NCBI GenBank assembly: GCA_947449945.1 | Contig: CANFTO010000002.1 | Coordinates: forward strand, 1-55,876 | DNA length: 55,876 nt | Direction: 5' to 3' | DNA from: Actinomycetota bacterium | Lineage (GTDB): Bacteria; Actinomycetota; Actinomycetes; S36-B12 | In this document: positions 20,759 to 43,322 of the stretch, in pieces | Layout: every line of letters begins with the position of its first letter | Numbering within the stretch: the first letter of the stretch is position 1 | Position numbers and translations under genes: made by a program | Notes under the pieces: generated by a model | The model's database searches: none | The model's input: only the letters and a program-made list of their open reading frames with translations | Told to the model about the DNA's origin: nothing

Positions 20759-21208
20759 CTAGGACTTGTCAGTGCGCATGCGATGAAAGTCGATGCCCGC
20801 GAATAACCAGCGGTCATCGACTTTTTCGTACGTATCGAAGTAATACCCCACACTGCGCACAGTTTTGATCGCCGGGTCCGACGGGTACTCAACATGTTCT
20901 GGGAACACTAAATAGTCACTGATGGCCCAGATCCCGCTTGCGTGGGTTTCATCCACAATCGTGATTTCACTTTGATGGCCTGCATGAAAAGTGAACACTT
21001 CACCGAGAATCCCGCGGATCTGATCGCGCATCTGTTCTTTTCCCGCGAAGGTGTAGTCGGACTCGTGATTGGTGAAATAGCAAGTCGGCGTAAAAAGTTC
21101 ACCGAACTCATCCCAAGCTTTGGTATCAACAAAGCGCCAATACTGCGCGCGCAACACACGAAGGTCTTCAATCGCTAGCAACCGGACCAGCGGATCGATA
21201 TCACTCAT
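20759..21208 (-). CDS. SnoaL-like / NTF2-fold protein
   Basis: IEDLRVLRAQYWRFVDTKAWDEFGELFT is a typical SnoaL_4/NTF2-like N-terminus. It is the last gene of the catabolic operon. Confidence 0.6.
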   Translation of the reverse strand: MSDIDPLVRLLAIEDLRVLRAQYWRFVDTKAWDEFGELFTPTCYFTNHESDYTFAGKEQMRDQIRGILGEVFTFHAGHQSEITIVDETHASGIWAISDYLVFPEHVEYPSDPAIKTVRSVGYYFDTYEKVDDRWLFAGIDFHRMRTDKS

Positions 21209-21225: not shown

Positions 21226-22263
21226 TTACTGACCTTCTTGAGCTGCATGCGCACGAGCGAGTTCAAGCGCCACATCGATAATCATGTCCTCTTGGCCACC
21301 CACAACCTTGCGGCGACCAAGTTCCAAGAGAATCTCTGCCTGACTTACGCCATAACGCTCTGCTGCCTTTTGTGAATGCAGCAGGAACGAGCCGTACACA
21401 CCGGCATAGCCAAGGATTAGCCCAGCACGGTCAATTACTTGCTGGCGCGGCATCATTGGTCGCACGATCTCTTCAGCCAAATCCATCAGAGCAAGCGGAT
21501 TCACGCCGGTTTCGATTCCGTACTTCGTACTTACCGCTGCCAAAATTTCCGTTGGGCAGTTACCCGCACCGGCACCCAAACCTGCACTCGTGCCATCAAG
21601 GTTCTTCGCGCCTTCCTCATAAGCAGCAATGGAGTTCGCAACAGCCATCGACAGGTTGTTGTGCGCATGCACACCCACAGGAATTTCAAGGGCATTTACG
21701 AGAGCATTGACCCGACGACGTACATCTTCAGTTGTCATCGCTCCTGCAGAGTCCGCGATGTAAAGCGTGTCAGCCCCATAGGACTGCATCAACAACGCCT
21801 GCTTGACGAGATCTTCAGGGGTACTCATATGCGACATCATCAGGAAGCCAATGGCTTCCATTTCTAGCTTCTTGGCAACCTTGATGTGCTGCTCAGTGAT
21901 ATCGGCTTCGGTGCAATGCACAGCGAGACGCGCGACGTTCACCCCGAGTTCCTTGACCTCACGAAGGTCATCAGCGACACCAATTCCTGGAAGCAACAAG
22001 CAGGCTATTTCGGCATTGGTGGTGGCTTCACAGGCACGGGCAATTAGCAACTTCTCGTCGACCTTAGAAAAGCCATAGTTGAAGCTTGAACCGCCGAGGC
22101 CATCGCCATGAGCAATCTCAATAACCTCAACACCCGCAGCATCAAGACCCTTAACAATGTTGATGACATCGTCTTCGGTGTATTGATGGCTAATGGCGTG
22201 TGAGCCATCGCGCAGAGTCGAGTCGATAAGGCGGAAGTCGCGATGTGTCGTTGGCGTGCTCAT
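21226..22263 (-). CDS. mhpE: 4-hydroxy-2-oxovalerate aldolase
   Basis: [17 protein letters not shown] matches the DmpG/BphI/HsaF/MhpE family N-terminus. There is a 4-nt overlap with the acetaldehyde dehydrogenase gene. Confidence 0.9.
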
Positions 22264-23174
22264 GCGTTGGCTCCTGACTTGTGAATCGAAATCGCTTCGC
22301 CTACGCGCAAAGCGGCAGCCGTCATGATGTCGAGGTTGCCTGAATACGGAGGCAAGTAATCGCCTGCACCTTCAACCTCAAGGAGGGCCACAACTCGATT
22401 AGGAACAACTCCACCCGGTGTATTGAATGGGCCGGCTTCAATTACTGGTTCATTCTTCAGGTGATAGCCGGGCACATATTTCGCCACTTCTTCAACCATT
22501 TCCAGGATCGAAGCAATCACTGCATCGTGATCTGAACCTTCAGGGAGTGCACCGAACACGGTATTGCGCATCATGATCGGAGGATCTGCAGGATTCATCA
22601 CGATGATGGCTTTCGACGTGTTGGCACCACCAATTTCACGAAGTGCAGCGCTCGTGGTCACGGTGAACTCGTCAATGTTTGCGCGAGTTCCAGGGCCTGC
22701 AGAAAGGGAAGCAATCGTTGACACCATCTCGGCATATGGCAACTCATCAATCGCGCGACGAATTGCGTAGACGATTGGTGTTGTTGCCTGACCGCCACAC
22801 GTGACCATATTGACGTTCATTGAATCCAGATGCTCATAAAGATTCACTGCGGGAATAACTTTTGGTCCACGCGCTGCAGGAGTGAGATCCACTGCGACGA
22901 TCCCGGCTTCGCGATACTTCGGTGCATTGCGTACGTGCACATACGCGCTTGTCGCATCGAAAATCATGTCAATGTTGTTGCCTGGATCAAGAACCCACTC
23001 TGGACCCTCGTGCGGAGCCAGTAGGCCAAGGCCCTTGGCGCGCTTAAGTCCATCACTTTCAGGATCAATACCTACAAGTGCGACCAGATCCAAAACATCA
23101 GAGCGAAGCATTTTGAACATCAGGTCAGTGCCGATATTTCCTGACCCCAGGATTGCGCAGCGCATTTTCTTCAT
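22260..23174 (-). CDS. mhpF: acetaldehyde dehydrogenase (acetylating)
   Basis: [14 protein letters not shown] is the N-terminal Rossmann motif and VTCGGQAT contains the catalytic Cys. DmpF/BphJ/MhpF family. Confidence 0.9.
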
Positions 23175-23180
23175 GAATGC

Positions 23181-23969
23181 TTACTTCACTTCCACTGTGA
23201 TTGAACCAAGACGATCAAACTCTGCGGTGAATGAGTCACCCGAAGACGCAGGAACCATCGCATGCAATGCGCCGGTCATGATGACCTGACCGGCCTTGAG
23301 TACGACACCCATCGGAGCCAATGTGTTGGCGAGCCAGGCAACAGTGGCCAACGGGTCACCCATGGCTGCAGCTCCGGCGCCAGTAGCGAGCACTTCGCCG
23401 TTCTTAGAAAACACCATGCCGATGTGTCGAGGATCGAAACCTTCAATAGGAACAACCTTGCCGCTCAACGCGATCGCGCCACCACTTGCAAGATCCGCAA
23501 CCGTGTCGGCAAGTTTGATTTTCCAGTCAACAATGCGCGAATCGACGATTTCCAGTGCCGCAGAAAGCCCCACGGTTGCATCGCGAACATCGTCCACTGT
23601 GCAATCAGGTCCACTCAGATCCTTTCCAAGAATCAAGCCAATTTCGCCTTCGATACGAGGCGCAATGAACTGATCGCGTGGAATCGTGGATCCATCCTTG
23701 AAAATTCCCGATTCAAATATTGGACCAAAGTCAGGCTGATCAATACCGAGCAGTTCCTGCATTGCCTTTGACGTAAGACCCAACTTGTATCCAGTTATGA
23801 CTTCACCGTTGGAAATCAGCTTCTCCACCAAACGTTGCTGAATCTCGTACCCGTCAAGCATGCCAAGTCCAGGAGCATCATCGGTGAACGCAGCGATGGC
23901 TTGCTTGGTTTGCCGAGCTTCGTACAAAGCATCGGCGTGCACTTGAGCCTGTTCGGCATTGATGGTCAT
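23181..23969 (-). CDS. mhpD: 2-keto-4-pentenoate (2-oxopent-4-enoate) hydratase
   Basis: FAH-fold hydratase strings (GYKLGLTSKAMQ, PRIEGEIGLILG). It sits immediately upstream of the dehydrogenase/aldolase pair. Confidence 0.85.
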   Translation of the reverse strand: MTINAEQAQVHADALYEARQTKQAIAAFTDDAPGLGMLDGYEIQQRLVEKLISNGEVITGYKLGLTSKAMQELLGIDQPDFGPIFESGIFKDGSTIPRDQFIAPRIEGEIGLILGKDLSGPDCTVDDVRDATVGLSAALEIVDSRIVDWKIKLADTVADLASGGAIALSGKVVPIEGFDPRHIGMVFSKNGEVLATGAGAAAMGDPLATVAWLANTLAPMGVVLKAGQVIMTGALHAMVPASSGDSFTAEFDRLGSITVEVK

Positions 23970-24017: not shown

Positions 24018-24281
24018 TCAGTGCGCGTGCGGTTCGCCTCGTAGCTGCGCTTTAGCGTAAGCACCGACTGCTAACCATTCGGTGCGCATTTCGGGTGTAG
24101 CGATGACAAAACTGGCCAGCTCCAGCGGATCAAGGTACGCAACCTCGTGAGTTTCTAAATCCTCAATCAGGAGCCGTGGACTTTTCCCTGCCCGATCAAT
24201 GGCAACGCGAACCGCAGCAAATTCGTTCCACACAACCTCTTCTGGCTTGTCGGTGATGCCAAGGGTCCAGTTATTGCTCAT
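24018..24281 (-). CDS. hypothetical protein (87 aa) embedded in the operon
   Basis: Its ATG overlaps the CoA-ligase stop by 4 nt (ATGA), which suggests translational coupling. I recognise no family. Confidence 0.4.
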   Translation of the reverse strand: MSNNWTLGITDKPEEVVWNEFAAVRVAIDRAGKSPRLLIEDLETHEVAYLDPLELASFVIATPEMRTEWLAVGAYAKAQLRGEPHAH

Positions 24282-25837
24282 GAGGGAGTGTCCTCTGCAA
24301 CAACCTTCTTCAGCTCGCTCTTGAGAACCTTGCCTGCACCGCTCAGTGGGAAATCGGTGTGCGTAGTGAAACCACGTGGTTGCTTGTAACCGGCAAGTTC
24401 AGCTCGACACAGATCCTTAATCTCTTGCTCAAGTTGGGCTTGATCGCCACTCCATTGCGATCGAACCACCACAGAAACATGGGGGCTTTCACCCCATTCT
24501 GGGTGCGGCATGCCAAACACTGCAACGGACTCAACACCTGGGTGCCGCGCAACAACTCGTTCAAGCTCTGCTGGGTAGATATTGAAGGCACCGCTAATGA
24601 TGAGGTCGTTCTTGCGATCAACAAGGAACAGATAGCCATCTTCATCCCGATAAGCGATGTCATTGGTGAATAAGGTGTCGCCGCGGAATCGATCCGCTGT
24701 TTCTTCTGGACGATTCCAGTAACCCGGGCTCACCGCTTCTGATCGCAGGGTGATTTCGCCAACCTCACCAGGTGCGCATTCCTTGCCATCGTCATCAACC
24801 ACTGCAATTTCTGCATACATCGACTCACGACCACATGAATTGACTCGTGAGACGTCGCCAAGAGCAATCTGTCGGTGATCTTCAGGTGACAACATCGTGA
24901 CGAAACCGCCAACTTCAGACTGGCCGTAGCGTTGCCAAAGATCACAACCGAGCAGTTCGAGCGCACTCTCAATGAGCGGAGCAGACGCTGGAGCCGATCC
25001 ATAGCCAATGCGCGTCAAAGAAGAGATATCGACTTTTGGTCGCTCCTCTAAATATGACACCACGCGCTGCAACATCGTAGGCACCATGATTGTTGAGGTA
25101 ATGCGGTATTTCTCAACAGTTGCAAGCACTTCTGGCACTTCAAACTTTGGCATGATCACCATGGTTTGGCCTTGATACGCCCAAGAAAGTGTGCGGAAGG
25201 CTCCACCAGAGGTGAAGAAGGGTGTAACGGCGATGTAGCGATCGTCATGGCGACTGCGATCCATGACAACTTGATCAACACAGCCTGCCAACATCGTTCG
25301 ATGCGTATGCATCACTGCTTTTGGTAGTCCAGTTGTTCCTGAGGTGTAGATAAACGCGCGCAAATCATCTGGCTTAAGATCACTTGGTGTTGGATCTCCA
25401 GCAGACGCAGCAAGAATTGCTCGCTCATAATCAGGAGCTGCTCCTGCACCATCAATCTCCAACGCGATTGTGATATCGCTGTTTCCGGCTATCACCGCTG
25501 TTGCCGCTTCGGCAACAGATCCATGGAAGATCAACGCCTTTGCGCCACTGTCTTGTGCCTGGTACTCAAGTTCAGCGGGAGCCAAACGCACATTGAGGGG
25601 CACAAGCACGAAACCTGCTTTGGACAAACCAAAGGAGATCTCTGGCCACTCAAGGGTGTTTGGCGCGAACATGGCAACGCGATCACCTGGTTGCAGTCCG
25701 GCATTGCGCAAGTAGGAGCCAATTCGGTTAGCTCGGTCATTGACGGCAGACCACGTCAACTCTCGACCTTCACAAATAATTCCAACTTTGTTTGGGTAAC
25801 GACGAGCATTCAGGCGTGGAATATCACCAACGAGCAT
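24278..25837 (-). CDS. AMP-forming acyl/aryl-CoA ligase (ANL family)
   Basis: AMP-binding motif IYTSGTTGLPKAV, plus YGQSE and a C-terminal GKVLKSELK. The ATG at 25837 has an AAGGA RBS, and the longer ORF-track start (25882) lies inside the upstream gene. Confidence 0.85.
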   Translation of the reverse strand: MLVGDIPRLNARRYPNKVGIICEGRELTWSAVNDRANRIGSYLRNAGLQPGDRVAMFAPNTLEWPEISFGLSKAGFVLVPLNVRLAPAELEYQAQDSGAKALIFHGSVAEAATAVIAGNSDITIALEIDGAGAAPDYERAILAASAGDPTPSDLKPDDLRAFIYTSGTTGLPKAVMHTHRTMLAGCVDQVVMDRSRHDDRYIAVTPFFTSGGAFRTLSWAYQGQTMVIMPKFEVPEVLATVEKYRITSTIMVPTMLQRVVSYLEERPKVDISSLTRIGYGSAPASAPLIESALELLGCDLWQRYGQSEVGGFVTMLSPEDHRQIALGDVSRVNSCGRESMYAEIAVVDDDGKECAPGEVGEITLRSEAVSPGYWNRPEETADRFRGDTLFTNDIAYRDEDGYLFLVDRKNDLIISGAFNIYPAELERVVARHPGVESVAVFGMPHPEWGESPHVSVVVRSQWSGDQAQLEQEIKDLCRAELAGYKQPRGFTTHTDFPLSGAGKVLKSELKKVVAEDTPS

Positions 25838-25850
25838 GTTCTTGAGTCCT

Positions 25851-26324
25851 TTAGATAATGAAAGCGACGGTGCGAATGGCATCTTCGTTGTTGACCAACA
25901 GTGCAGTCTTTTTCACGAGCTGCAAACCATCAGCTGTGCGACGAACGGTGTAGAGGTAGCGACCAGCCCATACATGTGTGCCATTGCGATGTTCGTACAA
26001 CACGAAGTTGGCACCAATATTGACGTCATCGCCTTGTTCGCCGAGCACTTCAAGGTTGCTGAGCATGCGGCGCATCTTCGATGGCGGGCTTTGTGAATAG
26101 CGGCGACCCGTTTTCAACTGAGCTAAACGGCTATGAATACGACTGCGATTGTCATAGATATATGAAACGTCTACCGAAGGATCTGAGTCGTCTTTGGTAG
26201 GCAACCAATAAATCGCATCGTCAGCCCACAGCGACTCCCAGTCGTCATAACGACTTTCATCCGCGTAGCGAGCTTCCAAGTACAGGAAGGCTGCAATGTC
26301 ATCGGGAACATGAGTGTTTGTCAT
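25851..26324 (-). CDS. aromatic ring-hydroxylating oxygenase, beta (small) subunit
   Basis: The string FLYLEARYADESRYDDWESLWADDAIYWLP fits the RHO small-subunit (NTF2-like) family. The start overlaps the alpha-subunit stop (TAATG). Confidence 0.8.
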   Translation of the reverse strand: MTNTHVPDDIAAFLYLEARYADESRYDDWESLWADDAIYWLPTKDDSDPSVDVSYIYDNRSRIHSRLAQLKTGRRYSQSPPSKMRRMLSNLEVLGEQGDDVNIGANFVLYEHRNGTHVWAGRYLYTVRRTADGLQLVKKTALLVNNEDAIRTVAFII

Positions 26325-27619
26325 TACGCCTGATCCTCTGTCATGAGTTCCTTATAGTGCACCCACATGGCGCGCTGGGTGGTTTCTGAGGTGCGGTCGT
26401 ATGAAGTTAGGCCCTTATCTTCCTGAACTTCTGAACTGAATCCGCGTGAAAGCAGCGCCCATTCAGGCTGCTTAGCCGCCAATCCAGCTTGGTTGCGCTC
26501 TCCCATCTCACCATCGTCAGCAATTAAGAATCCTGCTGGCCCCATGGCACCTTCAGCATTACGAAGAATGCGTGCATTAATTTCTTCTCCACCCGCAATG
26601 TGAATAGGTGCGGTGTATTGAATGGATTCATTCGCGGCAACTGGCTCAACCATGATTACGTGCATTTCAGCAAGGAAGAGGTTTGGCCAAATAAATGTAT
26701 GTGGAGGGCCATCAACAAAACGCTTGTGTGTTTCATCAGCGCCAACCGCTGCTTCCATCGCCGCTACGTACTTGGCCATTTTTTCACGAGGGGTGCGCTT
26801 GAACCAAATGAATTCAGCATCTTGCGCCTGGTATTCACGTGAGTAATCGACTTCGTTGTGGCCGCCACCAAGATCGCGAGTCGCAACCAACAATTCGTCA
26901 GACGCATAGTCAACTTTGGCCGGCATGATTGCCTTATAGACCGACTCATGCGTGAAGAGGGGGTGGTATCCATCAACCTGTGATTCGTTCACGATTTTCC
27001 AGTTTGCTGCTGACCTGTGCTTCATCCAGCCACCTCGCAATTCAATGCGACCTTCTGGCGAAAGGCTCAATAGGCGATCAATAGGTCCCTTTGCCCGACC
27101 GATGTAATCATCGAAGCTTCCAGCGTTTCCATAAAGGTTGGCGAAGATGAATCCACCGTAGATTTCAACTTGATGCGCTTGAGCCATCCCCAGCTCTGAT
27201 CGCATTTCAGCCATTTCTTGGTCGTAGCCCTCACGGAATGGAACACCCTGCAAGCGGCCATCGTTGGCGTACGTCCAACCGTGATACGGGCAACGGAAGA
27301 GTGCGGCGTTACCGGAATCTGCACGGCACAACATATTTGCTCGGTGGGTGCAGCGGTTGAGCAGCACGCGAACCACTTCATCCTTTCCGCGAGCAACAAT
27401 GACTGGCTGACGGCCGATACGGCGAGTGAGGTAGTCACCCTTCTCAGGGATCTCACTGTCATGACCAACAAAGACCCATGCGTTCTCAAACAACGCGGTC
27501 ATTTCAAGGTCGAAAATAGCTGGATCGGTGTATAGCGATCCATGGATTCGATCATGCTGAATAAGCGAAGCAATATCGATCGAAGATGCGCGATCCATTT
27601 GTGCTGTCATCTCTGTCAA
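26324..27619 (-). CDS. Rieske [2Fe-2S] aromatic ring-hydroxylating oxygenase, alpha subunit
   Basis: Rieske motif CTHRANMLC...CPYHGW and mononuclear-iron motif DGYHPLFTH. There is a 4-nt overlap with the upstream DUF35 gene. Confidence 0.9.
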   Translation of the reverse strand: MTEMTAQMDRASSIDIASLIQHDRIHGSLYTDPAIFDLEMTALFENAWVFVGHDSEIPEKGDYLTRRIGRQPVIVARGKDEVVRVLLNRCTHRANMLCRADSGNAALFRCPYHGWTYANDGRLQGVPFREGYDQEMAEMRSELGMAQAHQVEIYGGFIFANLYGNAGSFDDYIGRAKGPIDRLLSLSPEGRIELRGGWMKHRSAANWKIVNESQVDGYHPLFTHESVYKAIMPAKVDYASDELLVATRDLGGGHNEVDYSREYQAQDAEFIWFKRTPREKMAKYVAAMEAAVGADETHKRFVDGPPHTFIWPNLFLAEMHVIMVEPVAANESIQYTAPIHIAGGEEINARILRNAEGAMGPAGFLIADDGEMGERNQAGLAAKQPEWALLSRGFSSEVQEDKGLTSYDRTSETTQRAMWVHYKELMTEDQA

Positions 27620-28044
27620 CCTTTCACTGCGGTGTTGATGATGCGTGGGATGTTTTGGGTGCCAACGCGAACAAATTCAAGACGGACTTCTGTACCTGGG
27701 GCCATTGGTGTGTCGGAAACTGTGCTCGTGGACACGATGATGCGATGCCCAGAATTCAGCGATACTTCAATGACTGGATAAGCCGCATCTTGCTTCACAT
27801 AACGAGCGTCGACGCGATTCATCATGATGGAAACTGTGACTCGACCTGCAGGATCAACTGCCTCCCATACGCGTTCTTGGTGTGCACATTCATCGCAATG
27901 CAGTTGATCAAGATCAAGCGGATGCTTACACGCTGCACAAAATGGCAGCACGAGCATGCCTTCAGCTGAACCGGCCAAGTATTCAGTCAGTGGAGCGACG
28001 TCACTCGGTGCAGCTGATTCGTGAAGGAGCCAGTCGATGGTCAT
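27616..28044 (-). CDS. DUF35 protein (Zn-ribbon + OB fold), partner of SCPx-type thiolases
   Basis: Four-Cys ribbon CAACKHPLDLDQLHCDEC followed by an OB-like C-terminal half. It overlaps both neighbouring genes by 4 nt. Confidence 0.8.
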   Translation of the reverse strand: MTIDWLLHESAAPSDVAPLTEYLAGSAEGMLVLPFCAACKHPLDLDQLHCDECAHQERVWEAVDPAGRVTVSIMMNRVDARYVKQDAAYPVIEVSLNSGHRIIVSTSTVSDTPMAPGTEVRLEFVRVGTQNIPRIINTAVKG

Positions 28045-29198
28045 TGCTGTACTCCCATCACGAGTGCGTTCACGCTTTCAAGACGGCCACCAACAGACAC
28101 AACCATTGAAGTACCGGCATCGGCAATCTGACGGTTGCCACCCTGGCCGCGTAGCTGGGTAACTGCCTCAATTAGTGGGGTCGCACCCTGTAAGTAGAAC
28201 CCAGAAATTTGGCCACCGCCAGTATTTATTGGCAATGATCCGCCATGTCGCGTGTTTCCAGCCGCGATGAAGCTTCCTGCTTCCCCTGGCCCGACAACTC
28301 CCAACTCTTCCATCATGACCAGCGGAACGATCGTGAAAGCGTCGTAAATTTGAAGATTATCAATCGCGTCGACGGTCGTGCGTGCCTGCTTGAGCGCATC
28401 CGTAAACACCTCAGCAGCACCAACTGGGCGCCACGGAGAATGCGGTGCATGACGACGGCGCATAGTGTGACGCTGGGCCATGCCCCGAACGAATACCGGA
28501 TTCAGTGAATTCGATGAGTTCGGCTTGGAAACGATGAATGCCGCAGCGCCACTGACTGGTCGAGCGCAGTCAAGGCGACGAAGTGGAGCCGCGACAAGAG
28601 GTGCCTCATCATATTTTTCACGAGTCAGTGGTTCTCGAATCCAAGCAAGTGGATTCTCTACTGCCCATGAGCGCTGTGCTTGCGCAACAGCGAACAGGTC
28701 ATCGACACCTGCGTTGCGTTCGACAAAGTAGTGCTGTGCGATGAGGGCGTAAGCCGCTACTGCTCCGAGCATTCCTCCTGCACGTTCAAGTCCGCGGTAG
28801 CCAGTGTCTCCACCCATGCTTGCAAAGGCAGCTCCTGACGGAGCATTGGGCGAGATTGCTGCATCGGCGAAAACCACCACGATGTTGTCAGCTTCGCCAG
28901 CGTTGACCATGTCCGTTGCTTGCTTAAGCAACACCGACATCGTGGTGCCCTTTGACTCAAGTTCGTACAAAACCTTGAGCGTGCCAAAAGCTCCACGTCG
29001 CGAAAGATCTAGAGTGAGGTGATCGTCAGCAATCAGTTCATTTTGATTGATCAGCAACCCGTCGATTTCTCGAAGATCTAAACCAGCTTCTTGCGCAGCC
29101 ATTGAAATAGCTGACAGAGCATTGCCAGTTGCATCCGGGATTTCTTTCGGACCACAAATGACAACGCCCATCCCAGTGATGGCTGCGGATTGACTCAT
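28041..29198 (-). CDS. SCPx/Ltp-type thiolase-like protein (possibly a lyase rather than a thiolase)
   Basis: Thiolase-fold length and strings (ITGMG, LDCARPVSGAAAFIV, INTGGGQISGFYLQGATP). I cannot find a nucleophilic Cys motif at the expected position (ELESKGTTMSVLL). Confidence 0.75.
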   Translation of the reverse strand: MSQSAAITGMGVVICGPKEIPDATGNALSAISMAAQEAGLDLREIDGLLINQNELIADDHLTLDLSRRGAFGTLKVLYELESKGTTMSVLLKQATDMVNAGEADNIVVVFADAAISPNAPSGAAFASMGGDTGYRGLERAGGMLGAVAAYALIAQHYFVERNAGVDDLFAVAQAQRSWAVENPLAWIREPLTREKYDEAPLVAAPLRRLDCARPVSGAAAFIVSKPNSSNSLNPVFVRGMAQRHTMRRRHAPHSPWRPVGAAEVFTDALKQARTTVDAIDNLQIYDAFTIVPLVMMEELGVVGPGEAGSFIAAGNTRHGGSLPINTGGGQISGFYLQGATPLIEAVTQLRGQGGNRQIADAGTSMVVSVGGRLESVNALVMGVQQ

Positions 29199-29200
29199 AG

Positions 29201-30037
29201 CTACTTGCCTGCCTTGCTGAGGAAGTCAGTCGCAAGGGCGGTGAAATCAGCCGCGCGTTCGATCTGCACCCAGTGACCTGTATGTGGGAAAACATGAAGC
29301 TGCGCATCATCGATTGATTGCAACAACGTCATCGAACTTTCCAATGGGATGACCTGATCTTCTCGACCGTGAACCAACAACGTTGGATGTGCCACTCGAG
29401 CAAATTGCGATGGGTTCAGTGCCAGCAGTTCAATCCACTGCTGACGAGGTGCTGGGAAGAGAGACTCCCAGCGATCCTGTGCACCTTCTTTGATTGACGC
29501 TTGGTAACGCAATTCTCCAAGGTTTGCGGGCAACAGACTTCGGTCATACGTGAAGATCTCGAGGAGATTTTCCATTGCTTCAACCGATGGTTCATAACCC
29601 CACACGGCATCGAGACCGTCAGTCAGCTCAAAGGAAGCACCGACGCTGCCCATCAGCACAAGGCGATTAACCATCTCTGGATAGGTCGATGCAAACCAAA
29701 GTGCGAGCGCTCCGCCAAAGGAGTTGCCAATAATTGAAACCTTGGCTACACCGAGTTCATCAAGAAAGGTCTTGATATGGCGAACCCAGTCATCAGTGCG
29801 TGGAACGACGTTGCCATCGATTTCGGTGAAACCAAAACCTGCAACGTCAGGAGCAAGCACCCGGAACTGCTTTGCCAGCTCGGGCAAAATCAAACGCCAA
29901 TTTGCGTAGGCACTCACGCCAGGGCCTGATCCATGAATCAACAACACCACGTCACCTTCACCACCATCGTGATAATTGGTGGTGAAGGTGTCGTGACGAA
30001 GACTTAACCCAATTTCTGGGTTGGTTGGTGCATTCAC
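29201..30037 (-). CDS. meta-cleavage product (C-C bond) hydrolase, MhpC/BphD/HsaD type
   Basis: LLIHGSGPGVSAYANW, nucleophile elbow GNSFGG and C-terminal HTGHWVQIE are typical of MCP hydrolases. Confidence 0.85.
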   Translation of the reverse strand: MNAPTNPEIGLSLRHDTFTTNYHDGGEGDVVLLIHGSGPGVSAYANWRLILPELAKQFRVLAPDVAGFGFTEIDGNVVPRTDDWVRHIKTFLDELGVAKVSIIGNSFGGALALWFASTYPEMVNRLVLMGSVGASFELTDGLDAVWGYEPSVEAMENLLEIFTYDRSLLPANLGELRYQASIKEGAQDRWESLFPAPRQQWIELLALNPSQFARVAHPTLLVHGREDQVIPLESSMTLLQSIDDAQLHVFPHTGHWVQIERAADFTALATDFLSKAGK

Positions 30038-30603
30038 GAATTTGCCACAATCTGAGCATGTGATTCAAAGGCGCGAGCCATGTGCACAACTTCACTTGCA
30101 ACCATGCGGAGACCTTCTTCGGCGCCAGCCACTCCGGTTCCGCCTTCATCGGTTGCTGTGTTGACGACACAGCCATATGGCGTTGGCCATCCACGAAGCG
30201 CATGAACAATCATGCGAATCGTGGAGAGGGTGTTCACCGCTGCTTGGTAACCCTTAGCTACAGCGATGCTGCCAACGGGAATACCGGCAAAGTAGGAGCG
30301 CTCATCGCGCGCCATATCTTCCGTGTAATCCAATGCATTCTTGAGCATTCCAGAAATCGAGCCGTGATACGCCGCGGCAGAAATGATGATTCCGGAGGCC
30401 GCACGCATAGCCTCAACGAATTCCTTGGCTTCAGGAGTTCGATCCGGATCTGTTGGGTCATACATTGGCAACTTCTTCAACAGGTCACCTGAGAAAATCT
30501 TGACCTCTGCACCCTGTCGCTGTGCTTCATCCAGTGCTATGCGCAATGCGCCATCACTTGATGAAGTTGGACTCACTGTGCCGCCAATACCGACGATCAA
30601 CAT
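30034..30603 (-). CDS. NAD(P)H-dependent FMN reductase
   Basis: Flavodoxin-like fold. The N-terminus MLIVGIGGTVSPTSSS and the AAYHGSISG string fit the FMN_red family. Confidence 0.8.
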   Translation of the reverse strand: MLIVGIGGTVSPTSSSDGALRIALDEAQRQGAEVKIFSGDLLKKLPMYDPTDPDRTPEAKEFVEAMRAASGIIISAAAYHGSISGMLKNALDYTEDMARDERSYFAGIPVGSIAVAKGYQAAVNTLSTIRMIVHALRGWPTPYGCVVNTATDEGGTGVAGAEEGLRMVASEVVHMARAFESHAQIVANS

Positions 30604-30639: not shown

Positions 30640-31800
30640 TCAGAATGATTTTCTAGAGTCGTAGTTCGCAATTGCTTGACGAACTGCATTCGCACCGAGC
30701 TCACGACCCTCATCGAGGAATTCGAAGAAGCCATTCTGTGAGTCAATCTTGCGCTTGCTTTGGCGATTGACCTCAGGGATAACGTACTCAGCAAAGAGTT
30801 CGAAGGAACGCTTGGTTGCCTCAGGGTTAGCCCACTCGTGACCCATGAGCATGTAGGTGCCGAAACCACCAGTTTGCTCCTGGAGGCGAAGAATCTGCTG
30901 AACAGCGTCATCTGGCGTACCGATGATGCCTGCACCTGATTCCTGAACCATTTGAATCGAGGTCTTGCCTTCTTGGTAACGGGAAGGCTTGTTAAGCGCA
31001 GCTGCCCACACTTCGGTGATTCGAAGCCACTGAGCAACCATCTCGTCCATGCCGTAGCCGACATCCTTTTCAGCCTGCTCACGCGTTTCAGCGATGTGCA
31101 TTGGGCCAACAAGGCGCCAGTTCTCGCGCTGTGGCTTTGGCTGACCGTAACGCTCTGCAGCTTCTTCTGCGATTGACATGTGATTTGCGAGTGCTGCGAA
31201 GCCACCTTCCGTGGTTGCAGCGGTTGAGATCATCGACAGGTTGTGCTTGCCGGCAAGTGCTGGTCCTGATGGTGAAACCACACACACGGTTGCGATTTCA
31301 AAATCGGTCATTGGCTTGAACTGCAGGATTGCTTCGTTCAATTCGAACCAGTCAGTCTTCATGGTTACTGGCTCATCTGTGCGCAGCAATTGCATGATCG
31401 CGTCAAGGCACTCTTCCATGCGGCGACGTTGGTCATTTGGGTGAATACCCATCATGAGTGCGTCTTGTGGCAATGCGCCTGGTCCAACGCCCATGAGCAA
31501 ACGGCCGTTGGTGAGGTGATCAAGCGTTGCATAACGCTCGGCGGTCAAGAATGGGTTGTGGTACGCGAGTGAAACGACGCCTGAGCCCAGAATGATGCGC
31601 TCTGTGCGACGTGCAGCAGCCGCGATGAATAGGTCAGGTGCAGGAATTAACTCCATACCGCCTGAGTGGTGCTCACCGAACACAACCTCATCGAAGCCCA
31701 AGTAATCCAGGTGCTCGATCAAGTCAAGGTCACGGTGCAATGCACGCGTGGTATTTGCCCTTGCCGAATGGAAAGGAGAAAGGAATAAACCGAATCTCAT
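30640..31800 (-). CDS. LLM-class (luciferase-like) flavin-dependent monooxygenase, LimB-like, copy B
   Basis: MRFGLFLSPFH...FGEHH...GVGPGALP...IIGTPDD...GGFGTY are TIM-barrel LLM strings. It is a paralogue of 34463-35662. Confidence 0.8.
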   Translation of the reverse strand: MRFGLFLSPFHSARANTTRALHRDLDLIEHLDYLGFDEVVFGEHHSGGMELIPAPDLFIAAAARRTERIILGSGVVSLAYHNPFLTAERYATLDHLTNGRLLMGVGPGALPQDALMMGIHPNDQRRRMEECLDAIMQLLRTDEPVTMKTDWFELNEAILQFKPMTDFEIATVCVVSPSGPALAGKHNLSMISTAATTEGGFAALANHMSIAEEAAERYGQPKPQRENWRLVGPMHIAETREQAEKDVGYGMDEMVAQWLRITEVWAAALNKPSRYQEGKTSIQMVQESGAGIIGTPDDAVQQILRLQEQTGGFGTYMLMGHEWANPEATKRSFELFAEYVIPEVNRQSKRKIDSQNGFFEFLDEGRELGANAVRQAIANYDSRKSF

Positions 31801-31846: not shown

Positions 31847-32716
31847 TCATTTGCTATTCCCGACTGCGCTCACCGCAACACCCATGCCGGTGATCCATTC
31901 AGGGATAGGTACATAGGTGAATCGACCAGCTGAGGCGCCTGCGGCTGCCCAGGCTGCGACCCACGTGCGAATTTCGTGCGTTCCTGAGCCCACCGAAGTG
32001 AGTTCAGGATCTTGATATTCGCGTAAAACAGACCAATTGCTGGTCGTTAAAGCCTCGAGGAACTTCTCATCCCATGGAGCGTTCACATACTTCGCTGCAT
32101 CCAGAACTGATTTGCGCGCAATCGCTTCGCGTTCTTCCGAAGGCAAAGCTCGCACTTCAGCGCTCATTGACGGCGGTTGATGTGAGAGGCCACCTGAGCC
32201 AAGGAACAACACCCGCTTATTGGTTGTTGCCATGAAGGCTCCAACAGCCTGAGCCAGATCAATTGCTCGTGAGACTGACGTACGTGGCATTGATGCGCAG
32301 TTCAACACGATGGGAATCACTGGGATTGCATCAAGTGCGCTGAATAACTGCATGAATGTTTGTCCGAAGCCATGATCGATACGAACCTCGCTACCAACAG
32401 CGACATCGAAATCATGACTCAACAGGTGCGCAGCTAGCTGGTCTGCGAGTTCAGCTGGAACCACATACGGATCTTCTGGGGTTCCCCAGTCACCGAATCC
32501 AATCGCCGATGTTGCAATCGTGATCGGTGGCACGATTCCCTGAAGCGCCCGGAAATGATCGGGCCCAAAGAACACTACGAGTTCAGGATCAAAGGCTTGA
32601 ATCGTTGCCTTGACTTCCTCGATTGCATGAAAGAAGGTCGCGCCAGCCTCGCCAGCATCAACATTATCCAACAACGGGCTATGCGAAGCACAAACGCTTA
32701 AGAACTTTGCACTCAT
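31847..32716 (-). CDS. mhpB: class III (LigB/MhpB-type) extradiol catechol dioxygenase
   Basis: CASHSPLL, FFGPDHF, RIDHGFGQ, LFLGSGGLSHQPP, THEIRTWVAA and IPEWITG are strings I associate with 2,3-dihydroxyphenylpropionate 1,2-dioxygenase-type enzymes. Confidence 0.85.
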   Translation of the reverse strand: MSAKFLSVCASHSPLLDNVDAGEAGATFFHAIEEVKATIQAFDPELVVFFGPDHFRALQGIVPPITIATSAIGFGDWGTPEDPYVVPAELADQLAAHLLSHDFDVAVGSEVRIDHGFGQTFMQLFSALDAIPVIPIVLNCASMPRTSVSRAIDLAQAVGAFMATTNKRVLFLGSGGLSHQPPSMSAEVRALPSEEREAIARKSVLDAAKYVNAPWDEKFLEALTTSNWSVLREYQDPELTSVGSGTHEIRTWVAAWAAAGASAGRFTYVPIPEWITGMGVAVSAVGNSK

Positions 32717-33591
32717 TGATGAGCCTCCACATATTCAGTGACGATCGCGTTGAACGATTCTGGTTGTTCCCACTGCGGCCAATGACCTGCATCGTCAATA
32801 ACTTTGAGTTCACCCTGTGGAGTGATTTCAGCAGCACGCTGGGCACCCTTGACTGATCCACCTGGATTGTGTTCGCCCCATAGGTACAACACCGGAACAC
32901 TGATCGATGCCAAGAGCTCAGGTGTCAGGCCAAACTTCACTCGCCCTGGTGAGTCATACGGAATCATCTGATGTAAAGCAGGGATGAGTTCGGGAGCACC
33001 TGGTTGTGAATACAACGCCAAGCGCAGGTCGACGAGTTCTTCTGGGCAACGATCAGTGTTGTGGAACAGGGTATGCAGACGATTGCGCACCGTGTCGCGA
33101 TTCAGTGTTGCTAATTCATCATTGGCTTTCTTCCAGGAATCACGATCTTTGGCCTCATTCGCCGGCTGACCTTCAGGCCAACGGAACACTGCACCAGTTG
33201 CATTCACAACACACGTCACTCGCTCAGGGCTTTCAATCGCTAACCATGAAGCTACCCAGGCACCAAGCGACAAACCTACGAAAGCGGCTTTCTTAATATC
33301 CATAACATCCATCAGGTCACGTACTTGTTGGACGTAATCTGGGATCAAGTAATCGATATCGGTTCGCTTATCGCTCAGACCATGTCCAACAAAGTCAAAG
33401 GCAATGACGTGGAAGTTTTTTGCTAATGCATTGAAGTTTTTTGCCCATGCTTCTGCGTGACCCCCTGTGCCATGAAGTAAGAAAATGGCAGGGCCACTTC
33501 CTGCTTCAATGCATCGGGTGCGAGTCCCCTTCGCATCTCGATACACCACTTCGGTGCCTAACATCATGTTCCACAATGTTGAATGACTCAT
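32713..33591 (-). CDS. alpha/beta hydrolase, second MCP-hydrolase-like enzyme
   Basis: FLLHGTGGHAEAW, nucleophile elbow GLSLGAW and C-terminal DAGHWPQWEQPE. It overlaps both neighbouring genes by 4 nt. Confidence 0.8.
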   Translation of the reverse strand: MSHSTLWNMMLGTEVVYRDAKGTRTRCIEAGSGPAIFLLHGTGGHAEAWAKNFNALAKNFHVIAFDFVGHGLSDKRTDIDYLIPDYVQQVRDLMDVMDIKKAAFVGLSLGAWVASWLAIESPERVTCVVNATGAVFRWPEGQPANEAKDRDSWKKANDELATLNRDTVRNRLHTLFHNTDRCPEELVDLRLALYSQPGAPELIPALHQMIPYDSPGRVKFGLTPELLASISVPVLYLWGEHNPGGSVKGAQRAAEITPQGELKVIDDAGHWPQWEQPESFNAIVTEYVEAHQ

Positions 33592-34454
33592 GCGGCAATC
33601 CCTGACAACACAGTGGTTTGATATTCCTCAATCCGGTCCGAGAAGGCATTGAGGTCACCATCCCAAACTGAAAGAAATACGCGATCGACGCCAATGTCAT
33701 TGAGCTCCTGCAACTGCTCAAGAGTTGCTGGAGCAACCATCGTGATTTCTATGTCACTTGGATTTTTACCAGTACGTTCGCATTCATCGGCAATTCGTTG
33801 CTTAACCTTGCGAACTTCATCAGCACTTGAGCGCATGAGATGCATACCCGCTCCAAAACGCACGGCGCGACGAACAGCTGCCTCAGAGATTCCACCAATG
33901 ACCAGTGGAATCGACTTCGTTTCGGGCTGCGGAGTGCAATACATATTTTCAAAACTGACGAATTCGCCCTTGAACGTGGCCGGCGATTGAGCCCAAAGAG
34001 CAGTCATCGCTTCGAGGTATTCATCTGCACGTGCACCTCTACGAGCAAACGGCACGCCCACCGCATCGAATTCTTCAGACAACCATCCAAGACCTAAGCC
34101 AAGGATGATGCGTCCGTTCGATAACCGATCCAAGGTTGCCATCTGCTTAGCAAGCACGACTGGATTGCGAATCGGAAGAATCACAACGCCGGTCGCCAAC
34201 TTGATTTTGCTTGTTGAAGCTGCGAGATAACTCATCCACACGATCGGATCAGGGAGATCGTCGTTGCCCGTGAGCCCCATTCTTCCGCTGGAATCAAATG
34301 GGTAGACAGAGTCGTACGAGGCAGGAACCACTACATGTTCCACCATCCACAGCGACTCACAATTATGAGCCTCTGCGATGGCACCAAGCTGCGCAACGTA
34401 GTCAGGGTCAGATGCACCCTTACCCGTTGGAACTCGAGATACCCCAAACTTCAT
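33588..34454 (-). CDS. LLM-class oxidoreductase, probably F420-dependent
   Basis: The 288-aa short LLM form carries strings (LWMVEHV, LDRLSNGRIILGLGLGW, PLVIGG) that are typical of actinobacterial F420-dependent LLM reductases. Confidence 0.65.
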   Translation of the reverse strand: MKFGVSRVPTGKGASDPDYVAQLGAIAEAHNCESLWMVEHVVVPASYDSVYPFDSSGRMGLTGNDDLPDPIVWMSYLAASTSKIKLATGVVILPIRNPVVLAKQMATLDRLSNGRIILGLGLGWLSEEFDAVGVPFARRGARADEYLEAMTALWAQSPATFKGEFVSFENMYCTPQPETKSIPLVIGGISEAAVRRAVRFGAGMHLMRSSADEVRKVKQRIADECERTGKNPSDIEITMVAPATLEQLQELNDIGVDRVFLSVWDGDLNAFSDRIEEYQTTVLSGIAA

Positions 34455-34462
34455 TGGACGAC

Positions 34463-35662
34463 CTACTCGCCACTCTTTGGCTTGTAGTTCGGATCAGCCG
34501 CGCGTTCATCAGCGAATTGCTGACGAGCCTTCTCGCGTGCTGCGAGCACCCCAGGAGTGAGATCCGGACGTCGCTGAATCGCGTACTCCTCTGCCTTGAT
34601 CATCCACTCGGTACTGCCGGTGAAGTGCGGAATCACTTCATTTGCGAACAGTTCATATGACTTCAAGGTGTTCACTCGATTGGCCCACTCATGTGCCCAG
34701 AGCAAATAGGTGCCGAAACCACCAGCTTGTTCATACAAGCGCTCAATCTGCGCGATGGCCATTTCCGGAGTGCCAATGATTGCGAAACCTGATGCGACCA
34801 GGGTCTTGGCCCATGAACCATCAACTAAACCTGATGCAGGGAGAATTGGCAGCGTGCTGACGTCCTTCATGTAGTACGCCCACTCTTGGATGCCTTGTTC
34901 AACATCTGCGTAAGCCTGCTCTTCAGTTTCAGCAAGGTACATCGGGCCAACCATGCGCCACTGGTCACGGGAAACAGGAGTGCCATAACGCTCTGCCTGC
35001 TCTTCCATAATGTCCCAGTGCTCGGCAAGCACGTTGAAGCCTGCTTGCTGGGTTGCATTCATGGACAGCAACGTTGCACCGAGGCGACCTGCAAGACGTG
35101 GACCGTTTGGCGAGATCGTTGCTGCGATCGCAACGTCAATGTCTTTGCCGTTGTATGGCTTGAGCTGCAATGCAGCGCCGTTGAGTTCGAACCAGTCGGT
35201 CTTCATTGTGACGCGCTCGCCACGAATAAGCGCCATGATGGCTTCAACTGACTGCTCCATCATTTCGCGCGTATTCAGCGTGCTGATGCCCATAGCTTCT
35301 GCGTCATATGGGAGTGCGCCTGGGCCGACACCCAACATGATGCGACCATGCGAAAGGTGGTCGAGCATCATGAAGCGCTCAGCCACGTTGAATGGGTGGT
35401 GGTAAGGAAGCGACACCACACCGGCCCCTAGTTTGATTCGTGTGGTGCGTGCAGCCACGTACGAAAGGAATACATCGGGAGACGCAACGAACTCCCAGCC
35501 TGTTGAGTGATGCTCACCCATCCAGGCCTCATCGAAACCAAGGCGATCCATGTGCTCAATGAGCTCAACATCGCGTTGGAGCGCGAGCGTTGGACTCTTG
35601 CGGCTTGAGTGCACTGGGGAAATGAATGTTCCGAACTTCATGCGGCCAGTTGGCTTCGACAT
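34463..35662 (-). CDS. LLM-class flavin-dependent monooxygenase, LimB-like, copy A (first gene of the operon)
   Basis: ATG preceded by AGGAG. MKFGTFISPVH...MGEHH...GVGPGALP...MKTDWFEL...IIGTPE...GGFGTY. Confidence 0.8.
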   Translation of the reverse strand: MSKPTGRMKFGTFISPVHSSRKSPTLALQRDVELIEHMDRLGFDEAWMGEHHSTGWEFVASPDVFLSYVAARTTRIKLGAGVVSLPYHHPFNVAERFMMLDHLSHGRIMLGVGPGALPYDAEAMGISTLNTREMMEQSVEAIMALIRGERVTMKTDWFELNGAALQLKPYNGKDIDVAIAATISPNGPRLAGRLGATLLSMNATQQAGFNVLAEHWDIMEEQAERYGTPVSRDQWRMVGPMYLAETEEQAYADVEQGIQEWAYYMKDVSTLPILPASGLVDGSWAKTLVASGFAIIGTPEMAIAQIERLYEQAGGFGTYLLWAHEWANRVNTLKSYELFANEVIPHFTGSTEWMIKAEEYAIQRRPDLTPGVLAAREKARQQFADERAADPNYKPKSGE

Positions 35663-35845: not shown

Positions 35846-35935
35846 CCGACACTTGTTCATTGAGTGAATGGAACGTATGATCTCGCGCACGCGTTGTCAA
35901 TGGTTTTGCCCAACAAAGATGGAAGGGATGCGGTA

Positions 35936-36577
35936 ATGACCACTGTTCCCTCCCCTGTCGCAGGGATTGCCCAGGCTCGAGCAAGCAAGCGTGGCCCCAT
36001 TCGCGAAGCCCAAAAAGAACTCACCCGCCGGCGCCTGATGGATGCGGGCCTGGAGATCTTCAACGAAAAAGGCTTCGATGCCGCGACGGTGGAAGAAATT
36101 ACTGAGCGTGCCAATGCGGGACGAACCACCTTTTACTCACATTTCACCAGCAAATCTGACATTGCTGTGGCCATTGCGGTCTCAGAAACCGTCGAGCTCA
36201 ACGCTTCCGTCTCAGCCCTTGGCCGAACCGACCCTTTTGAACCAACCTCGCTACAGGACTGGCTAGATGATCTTGAAGCTAGGTTCCGTGAAGATGCCAT
36301 GCTGGTCACCCTGGTCATGCTCCATACCGAAGTCGCGCAAGAGTTCTTGCACGTGCAGGAGGCAACGGCCCGCAATGCACTGGATGGCTGGCTAGAAGCA
36401 GGCTTGGTTCCCGAGATCGAGGATCCACTCGAACAAATACGGTTACTACTGCTGCTCGTCAATCGCTGGATGTATCTCTACGTGACGCAGGGTTTGCCGG
36501 TGCCATCAGGAAGTCGAGAGGGTCTGTTGCTCTTTGTTCAAACACACCTTGCAACAGTGTTTGCGAACCCAGCATGA
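35936..36577 (+). CDS. TetR/AcrR family transcriptional regulator (divergent from the catabolic operon)
   Basis: HTH FNEKGFDAATVEEITERANAGRTTFYSHFTSKSDI. The ATG at 35936 follows GGAAGGG, and the ORF track begins at a GTG at 35864. Confidence 0.75.
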   Translation: MTTVPSPVAGIAQARASKRGPIREAQKELTRRRLMDAGLEIFNEKGFDAATVEEITERANAGRTTFYSHFTSKSDIAVAIAVSETVELNASVSALGRTDPFEPTSLQDWLDDLEARFREDAMLVTLVMLHTEVAQEFLHVQEATARNALDGWLEAGLVPEIEDPLEQIRLLLLLVNRWMYLYVTQGLPVPSGSREGLLLFVQTHLATVFANPA

Positions 36578-37868: not shown

Positions 37869-37915
37869 GTCGACTCCCTATCGATTCTTGGTCAATCAGA
37901 TCTCGTGCAACACTC

Positions 37916-42505: not shown

Positions 42506-42579
42506 AACTCATTCGCGTCGGCGCCCATGCGTTGGCGCTTCCTTTGAATTCTCACGTTTACTTTTGGAAGGTTTTATCA

Positions 42580-43308: not shown

Positions 43309-43322
43309 GGGATACTGAAAAT

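Follow-up and report, generated by a model that had tools for sequence, protein, structure and literature searches.

Six consecutive minus-strand genes at positions 24018-29198 of a 55,876-nucleotide contig from an Actinomycetota bacterium (GTDB lineage S36-B12; contig CANFTO010000002.1 of assembly GCA_947449945.1; this whole stretch is called the window in the following) are probably, judging from sequence comparison, an actinobacterial version of the Ipf-type module that excises the side chain of an aromatic acid as a coenzyme A (CoA) ester. To our knowledge, Ipf is the only genetically defined route by which ibuprofen is mineralised, and its genes are known only from plasmids of a few Proteobacteria. 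If the assignment is true, Ipf-like logic would be encoded on chromosomes and widespread among Actinomycetota, an abundant lineage of the freshwater plankton included, which would bear on the natural attenuation of aryl-alkanoate pollutants and on the turnover of plant phenylalkanoates. The Ipf-type families as such are known; what is new here is an additional conserved component, encoded by the sixth gene (orf87), and a meta-cleavage pathway that is built into the operon in the window's lineage.

Five tightly packed open reading frames fill the interval 24278-29198 exactly. In the order of transcription they encode a thiolase-fold protein (28041-29198; Thiolase_C_1, E = 1e-33), a DUF35 protein of 142 amino acids with a four-cysteine Zn ribbon and an oligonucleotide/oligosaccharide-binding (OB) fold (27616-28044), the alpha subunit of a Rieske non-haem-iron oxygenase (26324-27619, probable start at 27610; Rieske and Ring_hydroxyl_A domains), its beta subunit (25851-26324; Ring_hydroxyl_B, E = 5e-26) and an AMP-forming acyl-CoA ligase (24278-25882, probable start at 25837; AMP-binding, E = 7e-88). 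The probable starts of alpha and ligase were taken from the gene calls on a 98%-identical contig. The DUF35 gene overlaps both of its neighbours by 4 bases, which suggests translational coupling. The initial annotation, made from the sequence alone, had named these five families; Pfam and NCBIfam assigned four of the five genes readily, and the DUF35 call, the weakest of the five, was borne out by a profile of its homologues. All of these E-values lie well outside the range of chance. The annotation stopped short, however, of a conserved sixth member of the block, orf87 (24018-24281), which encodes a small protein of 87 amino acids, overlaps the stop of the ligase gene by 4 bases and is conserved together with the block elsewhere. 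The block forms the middle of a 17-gene unit on the minus strand (35662 to 20759), in which neighbouring genes are at most 48 bases apart and several overlap by 4 bases. An identical operon is present on the 98%-identical contig from ENA and, within one freshwater population, on at least 24 contigs, among them the metagenome-assembled genome (MAG) GCA_028687755.1 with the label Candidatus Nanopelagicales.

When plasmids were searched by tblastn, the matches included pIBU218 of Rhizorhabdus wittichii MPO218; its ipfABDEF region (locus L001 in our set) is the genetically characterised ipf cluster. Direct comparison with this cluster upheld the earlier statement that the window carries the same five families as ipfD, ipfE, ipfA, ipfB and ipfF. 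In phmmer comparisons the alpha subunit is 40% identical to IpfA (363 bits), the beta subunit 45% identical to IpfB (121 bits) and the thiolase-fold protein 38% identical to IpfD (226 bits), and by sequence IpfA, IpfB and IpfD are the closest characterised relatives found for the three proteins. Alpha and the thiolase-fold protein score about twice as high on IpfA and IpfD as on any solved structure: the best for alpha was the indole-3-acetate dioxygenase IadD (7yls, 198 bits), and the HcaE model of NCBIfam gave 192, whereas the thiolase-fold protein reached 112 bits with 4u4e and 100 bits with Ltp2 (6ok1_A). The motifs of the alpha subunit are intact, with C90-x-H92...C110-x2-H113 for the Rieske centre and D216/H219/H224/D369 for the bridging Asp and the 2-His-1-carboxylate site; C90, H92, C110, H113, D216, H219, H224 and D368/D369 are invariant in 13 sequences. 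The Ipf systems of Sphingomonas Ibu-2, R. wittichii MPO218 and Sphingopyxis granuli RW412 and the window thus have the same five families, with the genes for electron transfer lying outside the core block, and they are also alike in the lack of a dihydrodiol dehydrogenase, in the presence of a catechol-cleavage enzyme nearby and in the subfamily of the lyase. There are, however, clear differences. The order of the genes is lyase-DUF35-alpha-beta-ligase in the window but alpha-beta-lyase-DUF35-ligase in Ipf, the alpha subunits belong to different sub-clades, and the ligase is only generically related to IpfF. The window block has orf87 and a DUF35 protein with four cysteines, whereas the ipf cluster lacks orf87 and its IpfE lacks the ribbon cysteines; the extradiol enzyme is of the LigB/MhpB type rather than of the BphC/IpfL type. 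Unlike the Ipf genes, the block is chromosomal, is not flanked by IS6100 and is interleaved with luciferase-like enzymes.

The matches of the thiolase-fold protein in NCBIfam are lipid-transfer/SCP-type thiolase subfamilies, and in the Ipf literature IpfDE is called a thiolase. The steroid enzyme Ltp2 uses the catalytic residues Tyr294, in a YDHF motif, and Tyr344, and lacks the cysteine nucleophile. In the HMMER alignment to 6ok1_A these two tyrosines align with Tyr285 (in a YDAF motif) and Tyr335 of the window protein, and in a MAFFT alignment their equivalents are invariant in all 38 sequences, including IpfD. The position of the thiolase nucleophile is occupied by Thr, Ala, Ser or Gly, and by Cys in none of the 38, IpfD again included; in place of the thiolase motif HDCF the family has YDAF or YDPF. 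IpfD belongs to this lyase family, since it scores 496 bits on the hidden Markov model (HMM) of the family, compared to about 100 bits for thiolases from other clusters. Because both Ltp2 tyrosines are conserved and the nucleophilic cysteine is missing, the thiolase-fold protein and its DUF35 partner would be expected to perform a retro-aldol and not a thiolytic step, and we refer to the former as a predicted Ltp2-like retro-aldolase, that is, a C-C lyase. If this is correct, the 'thiolases' of the IpfD type are really Ltp2-like retro-aldolases, which would explain how the side chain departs and why a dihydrodiol dehydrogenase is dispensable. That the pair is a true thiolase, BbsAB- or SCPx-like, which cleaves a beta-ketoacyl-CoA, is very improbable: the family-level matches to thiolase and lipid-transfer models, a score of 69 bits with BbsB and the name used for IpfDE speak for it, but the residues just described speak against it, and BbsA matched the DUF35 profile with E = 0.8 only. 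The window protein has neither the nucleophilic Cys nor the HDCF motif of true thiolases and BbsAB, and its scores on BbsB are 69-70 bits.

The DUF35 protein is less easily recognised. As a single sequence it matched OB_ChsH2_C of Pfam below the threshold (E = 0.008; 16.5 bits versus a cut-off of 27.1), and in the PDB it found the DUF35 domain of ChsH2 with E = 0.45. A profile built from 24 homologues, in contrast, matched ChsH2 (6ok1_B, E = 5e-8), the Shy chain 9myr_B (2e-7) and an archaeal protein (6htj_A, 8e-7), among them the DUF35 chains that are partners of the aldolases Ltp2 and Sal. In the same alignment the ribbon cysteines C36, C39, C50 and C53 are conserved. BLASTP with the single sequence gave no match to IpfE, but hhalign of the 24-sequence profile with IpfE gave a probability of 97% (E = 6e-11 over 113 columns), and the IpfE reading frame scores 36 bits on the HMM of the DUF35 family. 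In IpfE (L001, 12148-12546) none of the four Zn-ribbon cysteines is left, whereas the actinobacterial DUF35 proteins have kept them. The window protein is presumably the partner subunit of the lyase. The Ltp2-ChsH2(DUF35) complex (6OK1) and the Sal-Shy complex (9MYR) resemble the pair of the window in the thiolase fold without Cys, the YDxF motif with a second Tyr and the DUF35 partner; they also act on the class of substrate proposed here, a beta-hydroxyacyl-CoA whose hydroxyl-bearing carbon lies in a ring, and release an acyl-CoA. On the other hand, the window lyase scores only about 100 bits on Ltp2, Ala or Pro takes the place of His296 of YDHF, the DUF35 protein stands alone with its 142 amino acids whereas in ChsH2 and Shy DUF35 is fused to a MaoC hydratase, and the beta-hydroxyl group would come from a Rieske dioxygenase and not from a hydratase as in the Ltp2 and Sal systems. 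Genes of the MaoC, KshA or HsaA families were not found in the operon by Pfam and NCBIfam scans. Comparison with Ltp2/ChsH2 and BbsAB, which had been named as alternatives to Ipf, thus disposed of both the steroid (KshA/Ltp2) and the anaerobic BbsAB readings, on scores as well as on gene content.

With the conserved residues and the synteny as observed, and with substrate, regiochemistry and the catechol product as predictions, the following sequence of reactions can be proposed. The ligase would produce the CoA thioester of an acid of the arylacetic or 2-arylpropionic type. Given the homology to IpfAB, the alpha/beta oxygenase, fed by a ferredoxin and a reductase encoded elsewhere, would then dihydroxylate the ipso carbon and its neighbour, so that the ipso carbon becomes the beta-hydroxy carbon of the acyl-CoA. 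Retro-aldolases of the thiolase superfamily cleave beta-hydroxyacyl-CoA of the type that is formed by such an ipso diol. The thiolase-fold protein and DUF35, acting as an Ltp2-type retro-aldolase, would cut the bond between C(alpha) and C(ipso), giving acetyl- or propionyl-CoA and the keto tautomer of a catechol without the need for a dihydrodiol dehydrogenase. Finally, the MhpB-like extradiol dioxygenase would open the catechol, and the hydrolase, hydratase, aldolase and acylating aldehyde dehydrogenase of the operon would process the product. The steps resemble those of the published Ipf scheme, in which the ligase and then the dioxygenase act before IpfDE yields 4-isobutylcatechol and propionyl-CoA. 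The excision of the side chain had been put forward in the initial annotation, and it gains support from the Ltp2-type tyrosines and the missing thiolase cysteine.

The genes for the last steps are present on both sides of the block. The LigB-type, MhpB-like extradiol dioxygenase (31847-32716, minus strand, as are all genes of the operon; LigB, E = 6e-33) scores 266.4 bits on NF009909, the model of 3-carboxyethylcatechol 2,3-dioxygenase, against a cut-off of 286, and its sole match in the PDB is MhpB (8k04, 172 bits). The HsaD/BphD-like alpha/beta hydrolase, a predicted meta-cleavage-product hydrolase (29201-30037), has an Abhydrolase_1 domain and scores 184 and 151 bits on the NCBIfam models of HsaD and BphD, both below cut-off. 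The hydratase for 2-oxopent-4-enoate, or for 2-oxohept-4-ene-1,7-dioate (23181-23969; FAA_hydrolase), is below cut-off as well, with 269 bits on TIGR03220 and 230 bits on HpaH. The acetylating acetaldehyde dehydrogenase (22260-23174) and the 4-hydroxy-2-oxovalerate aldolase (21226-22263) exceed their cut-offs, with 412 bits on TIGR03215 (cut-off 282) and 497 bits on TIGR03217 (cut-off 286), respectively. This lower half of the operon has the same families as the mhp system of Escherichia coli (MhpB, C, D, E and F), that is, a LigB-type enzyme like 2,3-dihydroxyphenylpropionate dioxygenase, a C-C hydrolase, a hydratase, an aldolase and an acetylating dehydrogenase; it differs in that the window has no MhpA, that the MhpB-like score is just below cut-off and that the upper pathway is wholly different.

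A dihydrodiol dehydrogenase of the short-chain dehydrogenase/reductase (SDR) or BphB type was not found in the 17-gene operon by Pfam and NCBIfam scans; the extradiol and lower-pathway genes were, so the earlier observation that the operon moves on to catechol cleavage without this enzyme holds. A distant SDR of the window was considered as cis-diol dehydrogenase and rejected, being generic and glucose-1-dehydrogenase-like. The lack of the enzyme would be accounted for by the predicted retro-aldol step. It also weighs against another, unlikely division of labour, in which, similar to dit and steroid pathways, the Rieske oxygenase attacks the ring of a free aromatic acid or hydrocarbon, and the beta-oxidation-like shortening of an aliphatic side chain or of a ring-cleavage product falls to the ligase, the thiolase-fold protein and DUF35; the adjacency of the five families would then not mirror one reaction sequence. 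Clusters of the dit type do combine a Rieske alpha/beta oxygenase with a CoA ligase and an SCPx-like thiolase. Moreover, the best solved relatives of alpha, IadD and HcaE, use free acids, the ligase resembles generic medium- and long-chain as well as feruloyl-CoA ligases, the top match of the hydrolase in NCBIfam is the steroid enzyme HsaD, and the copies of the block in Rhodococcus are surrounded by acyl-CoA dehydrogenases and true thiolases. But such a route would require a cis-dihydrodiol dehydrogenase, and the operon has neither this enzyme nor an acyl-CoA dehydrogenase or enoyl-CoA hydratase by which a beta-hydroxyacyl-CoA could be made otherwise. In at least 32 species the five genes show strict co-linearity and translational coupling, and the scores of alpha and lyase on IpfA and IpfD are about double those on any other characterised protein.

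Several observations weigh against an Ipf-type function of the block. The ligase is not specifically IpfF-like: it scores 266 bits on IpfF (33% identity) compared to 260 bits on feruloyl-CoA synthetase (8wev) and 242 bits on FadD13, and since the first two values are nearly equal, the ligase is not diagnostic. Nor is IpfA the sister of the window clade: in a neighbour-joining tree, IpfA groups with other proteobacterial and Binatia sequences, and its nearest relatives include oxygenases without a lyase or DUF35 nearby, whereas the actinobacterial block and a second actinobacterial group (group B, see below) are sisters. A ferredoxin or an oxygenase reductase was not found in the whole window; tblastn with IpfH, IpfI and three actinobacterial ferredoxin/reductase proteins (E <= 0.1) returned only the Rieske domain of alpha itself. 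In the Ipf strains the corresponding genes (IpfI, IpfH) are likewise unlinked to ipfABDEF. The F420-type oxidoreductase encoded at 33588-34454 could in principle serve as an unconventional dehydrogenase, and the MhpB-like enzyme suggests a 3-substituted catechol, in contrast to the 4-substituted product that arises from ibuprofen. Finally, no BphC- or LigB-type extradiol gene was found within 10 kb of the other actinobacterial copies of the block; the dioxygenase adjoins it only in the window, in the 98%-identical contig (L085), in a Microbacteriaceae MAG (L004) and in Arthrobacter (L005). A catechol product is therefore not self-evident for the family as a whole, and the fusion with a meta pathway, correctly seen in the window, is special to the window's lineage.

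The genes interleaved with the block leave room for a further explanation. Upstream of it lie, in the order of transcription, a luciferase-like oxidoreductase (34463-35662), a second one of the F420-dependent TIGR03619 family (33588-34454), an alpha/beta hydrolase, the second of the operon (32713-33591), the MhpB-like dioxygenase, a luciferase-like monooxygenase (30640-31800; Bac_luciferase, E = 1e-43), a NADPH-dependent flavin mononucleotide (FMN) reductase (30034-30603; FMN_red, E = 7e-24) and the HsaD/BphD-like hydrolase. The luciferase-like monooxygenase and the FMN reductase are kept in the nearest relative, L004, with 71% and 63% identity. Another substituent of the substrate, or a precursor, is probably the target of the three luciferase-like enzymes, the FMN reductase and the second hydrolase. 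They could also belong to the degradation of a heteroaromatic or alicyclic acetic acid, for example indole-3-acetate, a terpenoid or a naphthenic acid. Here, the CoA ester would be hydroxylated, the retro-aldolase would remove acetyl-CoA to leave a ketone, and ring opening by Baeyer-Villiger oxidation and hydrolysis of the lactone would be the task of the luciferase-like monooxygenases, together with the FMN reductase and the second hydrolase; the extradiol branch would serve an intermediate that is later or parallel. In favour of this, the three luciferase-like enzymes, the reductase and the extra hydrolase are interleaved with the block and kept in its nearest relatives, genes of the luciferase-like, F420 and flavin-reductase types are also found next to the Rhodococcus block, which has no extradiol dioxygenase nearby, and the best solved relative of alpha is IadD. 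We nevertheless regard this as quite improbable: the window and Rhodococcus luciferase-like proteins share only 26-32% identity, a value at which we rejected their orthology as evidence, such genes are very common in actinobacteria, the operon holds a complete set for meta-cleavage of a catechol, and the route is without precedent.

Downstream of the five-gene block follow orf87, the hydratase, the acetylating dehydrogenase, the aldolase and, as the last gene of the unit, a SnoaL_4/NTF2-like protein (20759-21208; SnoaL_4, E = 6e-19). A TetR-family regulator (35864-36577, plus strand; TetR_N, E = 5e-14) is divergent from the operon, occupies the same position on L085 and is a candidate repressor. 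A scan for promoter and terminator consensus sequences between 20000 and 36600 was uninformative, with fewer promoter-like sites than in shuffled sequences and terminators at chance level.

The Ipf-type block is not restricted to the window. Scanning one genome per species gave 80 loci, which were examined by tblastn and HMMs. In the 32 loci with an alpha subunit at least 52% identical, all of them from Actinomycetota, the genes for the thiolase-like protein, the OB protein, alpha, beta and the ligase are co-linear throughout, incomplete contigs aside. The carriers include Mycobacterium, Rhodococcus, Streptomyces, Frankia, Pseudonocardia, Nocardioides, Acidimicrobiia, Arthrobacter and a Microbacteriaceae MAG, and the five families also occur together in Cycloclasticus and in an Acidobacterium. 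The block is thus common in public genomes (at least 32 actinobacterial species) yet uncharacterised, and both its rarity in Actinomycetota and its link to micropollutants had been overstated. In the literature searched, Ipf is described only in Sphingomonadaceae, Pseudomonas and consortia. The sole actinobacterial proposal that we found is a BLAST-level list of scattered ipf-like candidates in Mycolicibacterium aubagnense HPB1.1; searches for CoA-ester Rieske oxygenases with DUF35 added nothing further, and we came across no publication in which the actinobacterial block, orf87 or group B is characterised or IpfD is treated as an aldolase.

Plasmids pDK3 (Rhodococcus DK17/DK180) and pGD02.2.1 share their genes and the core gene order with the window, at 40-58% identity (50% for the ligases of the window and of the Rhodococcus block). 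As in the window, a hydrolase and a hydratase are adjacent to the six-gene clusters of Rhodococcus, Mycobacterium, Streptomyces, Frankia and Pseudonocardia, and a hydrolase, an HpaH-like hydratase and an HpaI-like aldolase are present in most actinobacterial copies (group A, L002-L035; L091). The hydrolase beside the block in other actinobacteria is the counterpart of the second hydrolase (32-38% identity) and not of the HsaD-like one. Unlike the window, these clusters have lower enzymes of the HpaH/HpaI type, acyl-CoA dehydrogenases, a second large ligase and a 2-oxoacid:ferredoxin oxidoreductase. On pDK3 no ring-cleavage dioxygenase is found in the annotated 12 kb upstream and about 36 kb downstream of alpha. 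Just downstream of the block (L091, 406-5873) this plasmid encodes a flavin reductase, an acyl-CoA-dehydrogenase-like protein, two luciferase-like oxidoreductases, a PaaI thioesterase and an F420-dependent glucose-6-phosphate dehydrogenase.

The cluster of the closest cultured relative is that of Arthrobacter sp. AZCC_0090 (L005, 1105-3247 and 14498-19161). It has, in addition, a PaaE-like FNR/2Fe-2S reductase (1105-2205), an IclR regulator, a generic SDR and a five-gene ABC transporter of the Liv type, which is inserted between orf87 and the aldehyde dehydrogenase. The reductase and the transporter fit what would be expected for the uptake of an organic acid. The SDR was rejected as cis-diol dehydrogenase, since it is generic and coniferyl-alcohol-dehydrogenase-like.

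Group B, the sister of the block's oxygenase clade, is represented by plasmid pRoPD630_1 of Rhodococcus opacus PD630 (L084, 8238-14669), where the order is ligase-alpha-beta-orf87-(HMG-CoA-synthase-like/OB fusion)-thiolase. It shares with the window block an alpha subunit of about 44% identity, the orf87 family, an adjacent CoA ligase and proteins of the thiolase superfamily and the OB type. In contrast to the block, however, a true thiolase (PRK06157, 609 bits) and the HMG-CoA-synthase-like/OB fusion replace the IpfD-type lyase, and enoyl-CoA hydratases are present. Group B looks like a second uncharacterised CoA-dependent Rieske pathway. The cluster also has a ferredoxin and a reductase, and the group (L036-L083 as well) is widespread in Mycolicibacterium, Pseudonocardia, Marmoricola, Patulibacter and Solirubrobacterales.

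Orf87 contains no cysteines and has no match in Pfam (E <= 10) or NCBIfam (E <= 0.1), and yet it is present with 45-65% identity in every locus with an alpha subunit at least 52% identical. Its homologues adjoin the block or the oxygenase in about 65 loci, but the gene is absent, by HMM and tblastn scans of the loci, from the ipf cluster and from the Ipf-ordered locus of Cycloclasticus. In group B it lies directly 3' of alpha-beta. Because orf87 occurs in both group A and group B, its constant companions are the oxygenase and the ligase and not the IpfD-type lyase. It is probably an accessory protein for this clade of CoA-ester-dependent Rieske oxygenases, and if so, it would be a new component of such systems. 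The family is large, with at least 4020 clusters at 90% identity and at least 825 at 50% identity, and all of the former are named hypothetical except for one evidently spurious 'dihydrodiol dehydrogenase'. The latter name in UniRef belongs to the homologue from Patulibacter brassicae (P0215, about 100 amino acids). P0215 is unlikely to be a dehydrogenase because of its size, its predicted fold and the lack of a match to any dehydrogenase family, and the name is probably an annotation error carried over from the gene context. The AlphaFold2 model of orf87 (pLDDT 78) has four strands and three helices, and Foldseek gave no significant match in the PDB; the best hits, with E = 0.06 and a TM score of about 0.27, were small barrels of the PWWP and SH3-like type. 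In an HMM search of the whole library nearly all members were stand-alone proteins of 66-134 amino acids, without informative fusions. In one long-read MAG (L012, 8131-9534) orf87 runs in frame and without a stop into the gene of the thiolase-fold protein, which is either a natural fusion or an assembly error.

Taken one step further, orf87 may mark a large, so far unrecognised clade of Rieske oxygenases for acyl-CoA thioesters that need a third small protein of novel fold as subunit, assembly factor or substrate-delivery factor. At the same time, the 17-gene operon may enable an abundant, rhodopsin-bearing planktonic actinobacterium of fresh waters to mineralise arylacetic and 2-arylpropionic acids in a self-contained manner, by dioxygenase-primed retro-aldol removal of the side chain. 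The natural substrates would be phenylalkanoates of plants and algae, possibly also micropollutants of the NSAID (non-steroidal anti-inflammatory drug) type. Both ideas together make a speculative and, as a whole, rather doubtful proposal. The rhodopsin refers to a bacteriorhodopsin-like, actinorhodopsin-type gene of the window (44838-45668, minus strand), and together with the lineage it fits a planktonic, light-using freshwater actinobacterium as the source of the DNA.

Some further genes of the window should be mentioned. About 3 kb upstream of the operon, a CoA-acylating methylmalonate-semialdehyde dehydrogenase (38551-40062, minus strand; 695 bits, cut-off exceeded) could be a link to the metabolism of propionyl-CoA. 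A protein of 585 amino acids from the animal haem peroxidase family (4737-6494, plus strand; E = 5e-161) seems unusual for the small genome of a planktonic actinobacterium. At 45855-47413 (minus strand) a small ThiS-family protein is encoded directly downstream of a pyridoxal-phosphate-dependent (PALP) enzyme, an arrangement that resembles a sulfur-carrier-dependent cysteine or thiocarboxylate system. The operon region is flanked (42346-43970, plus strand; 37311-38539, minus strand) by a DUF1775/CopC pair for copper handling, a VKOR-family protein and a THAP4-like haem-binding beta-barrel protein.

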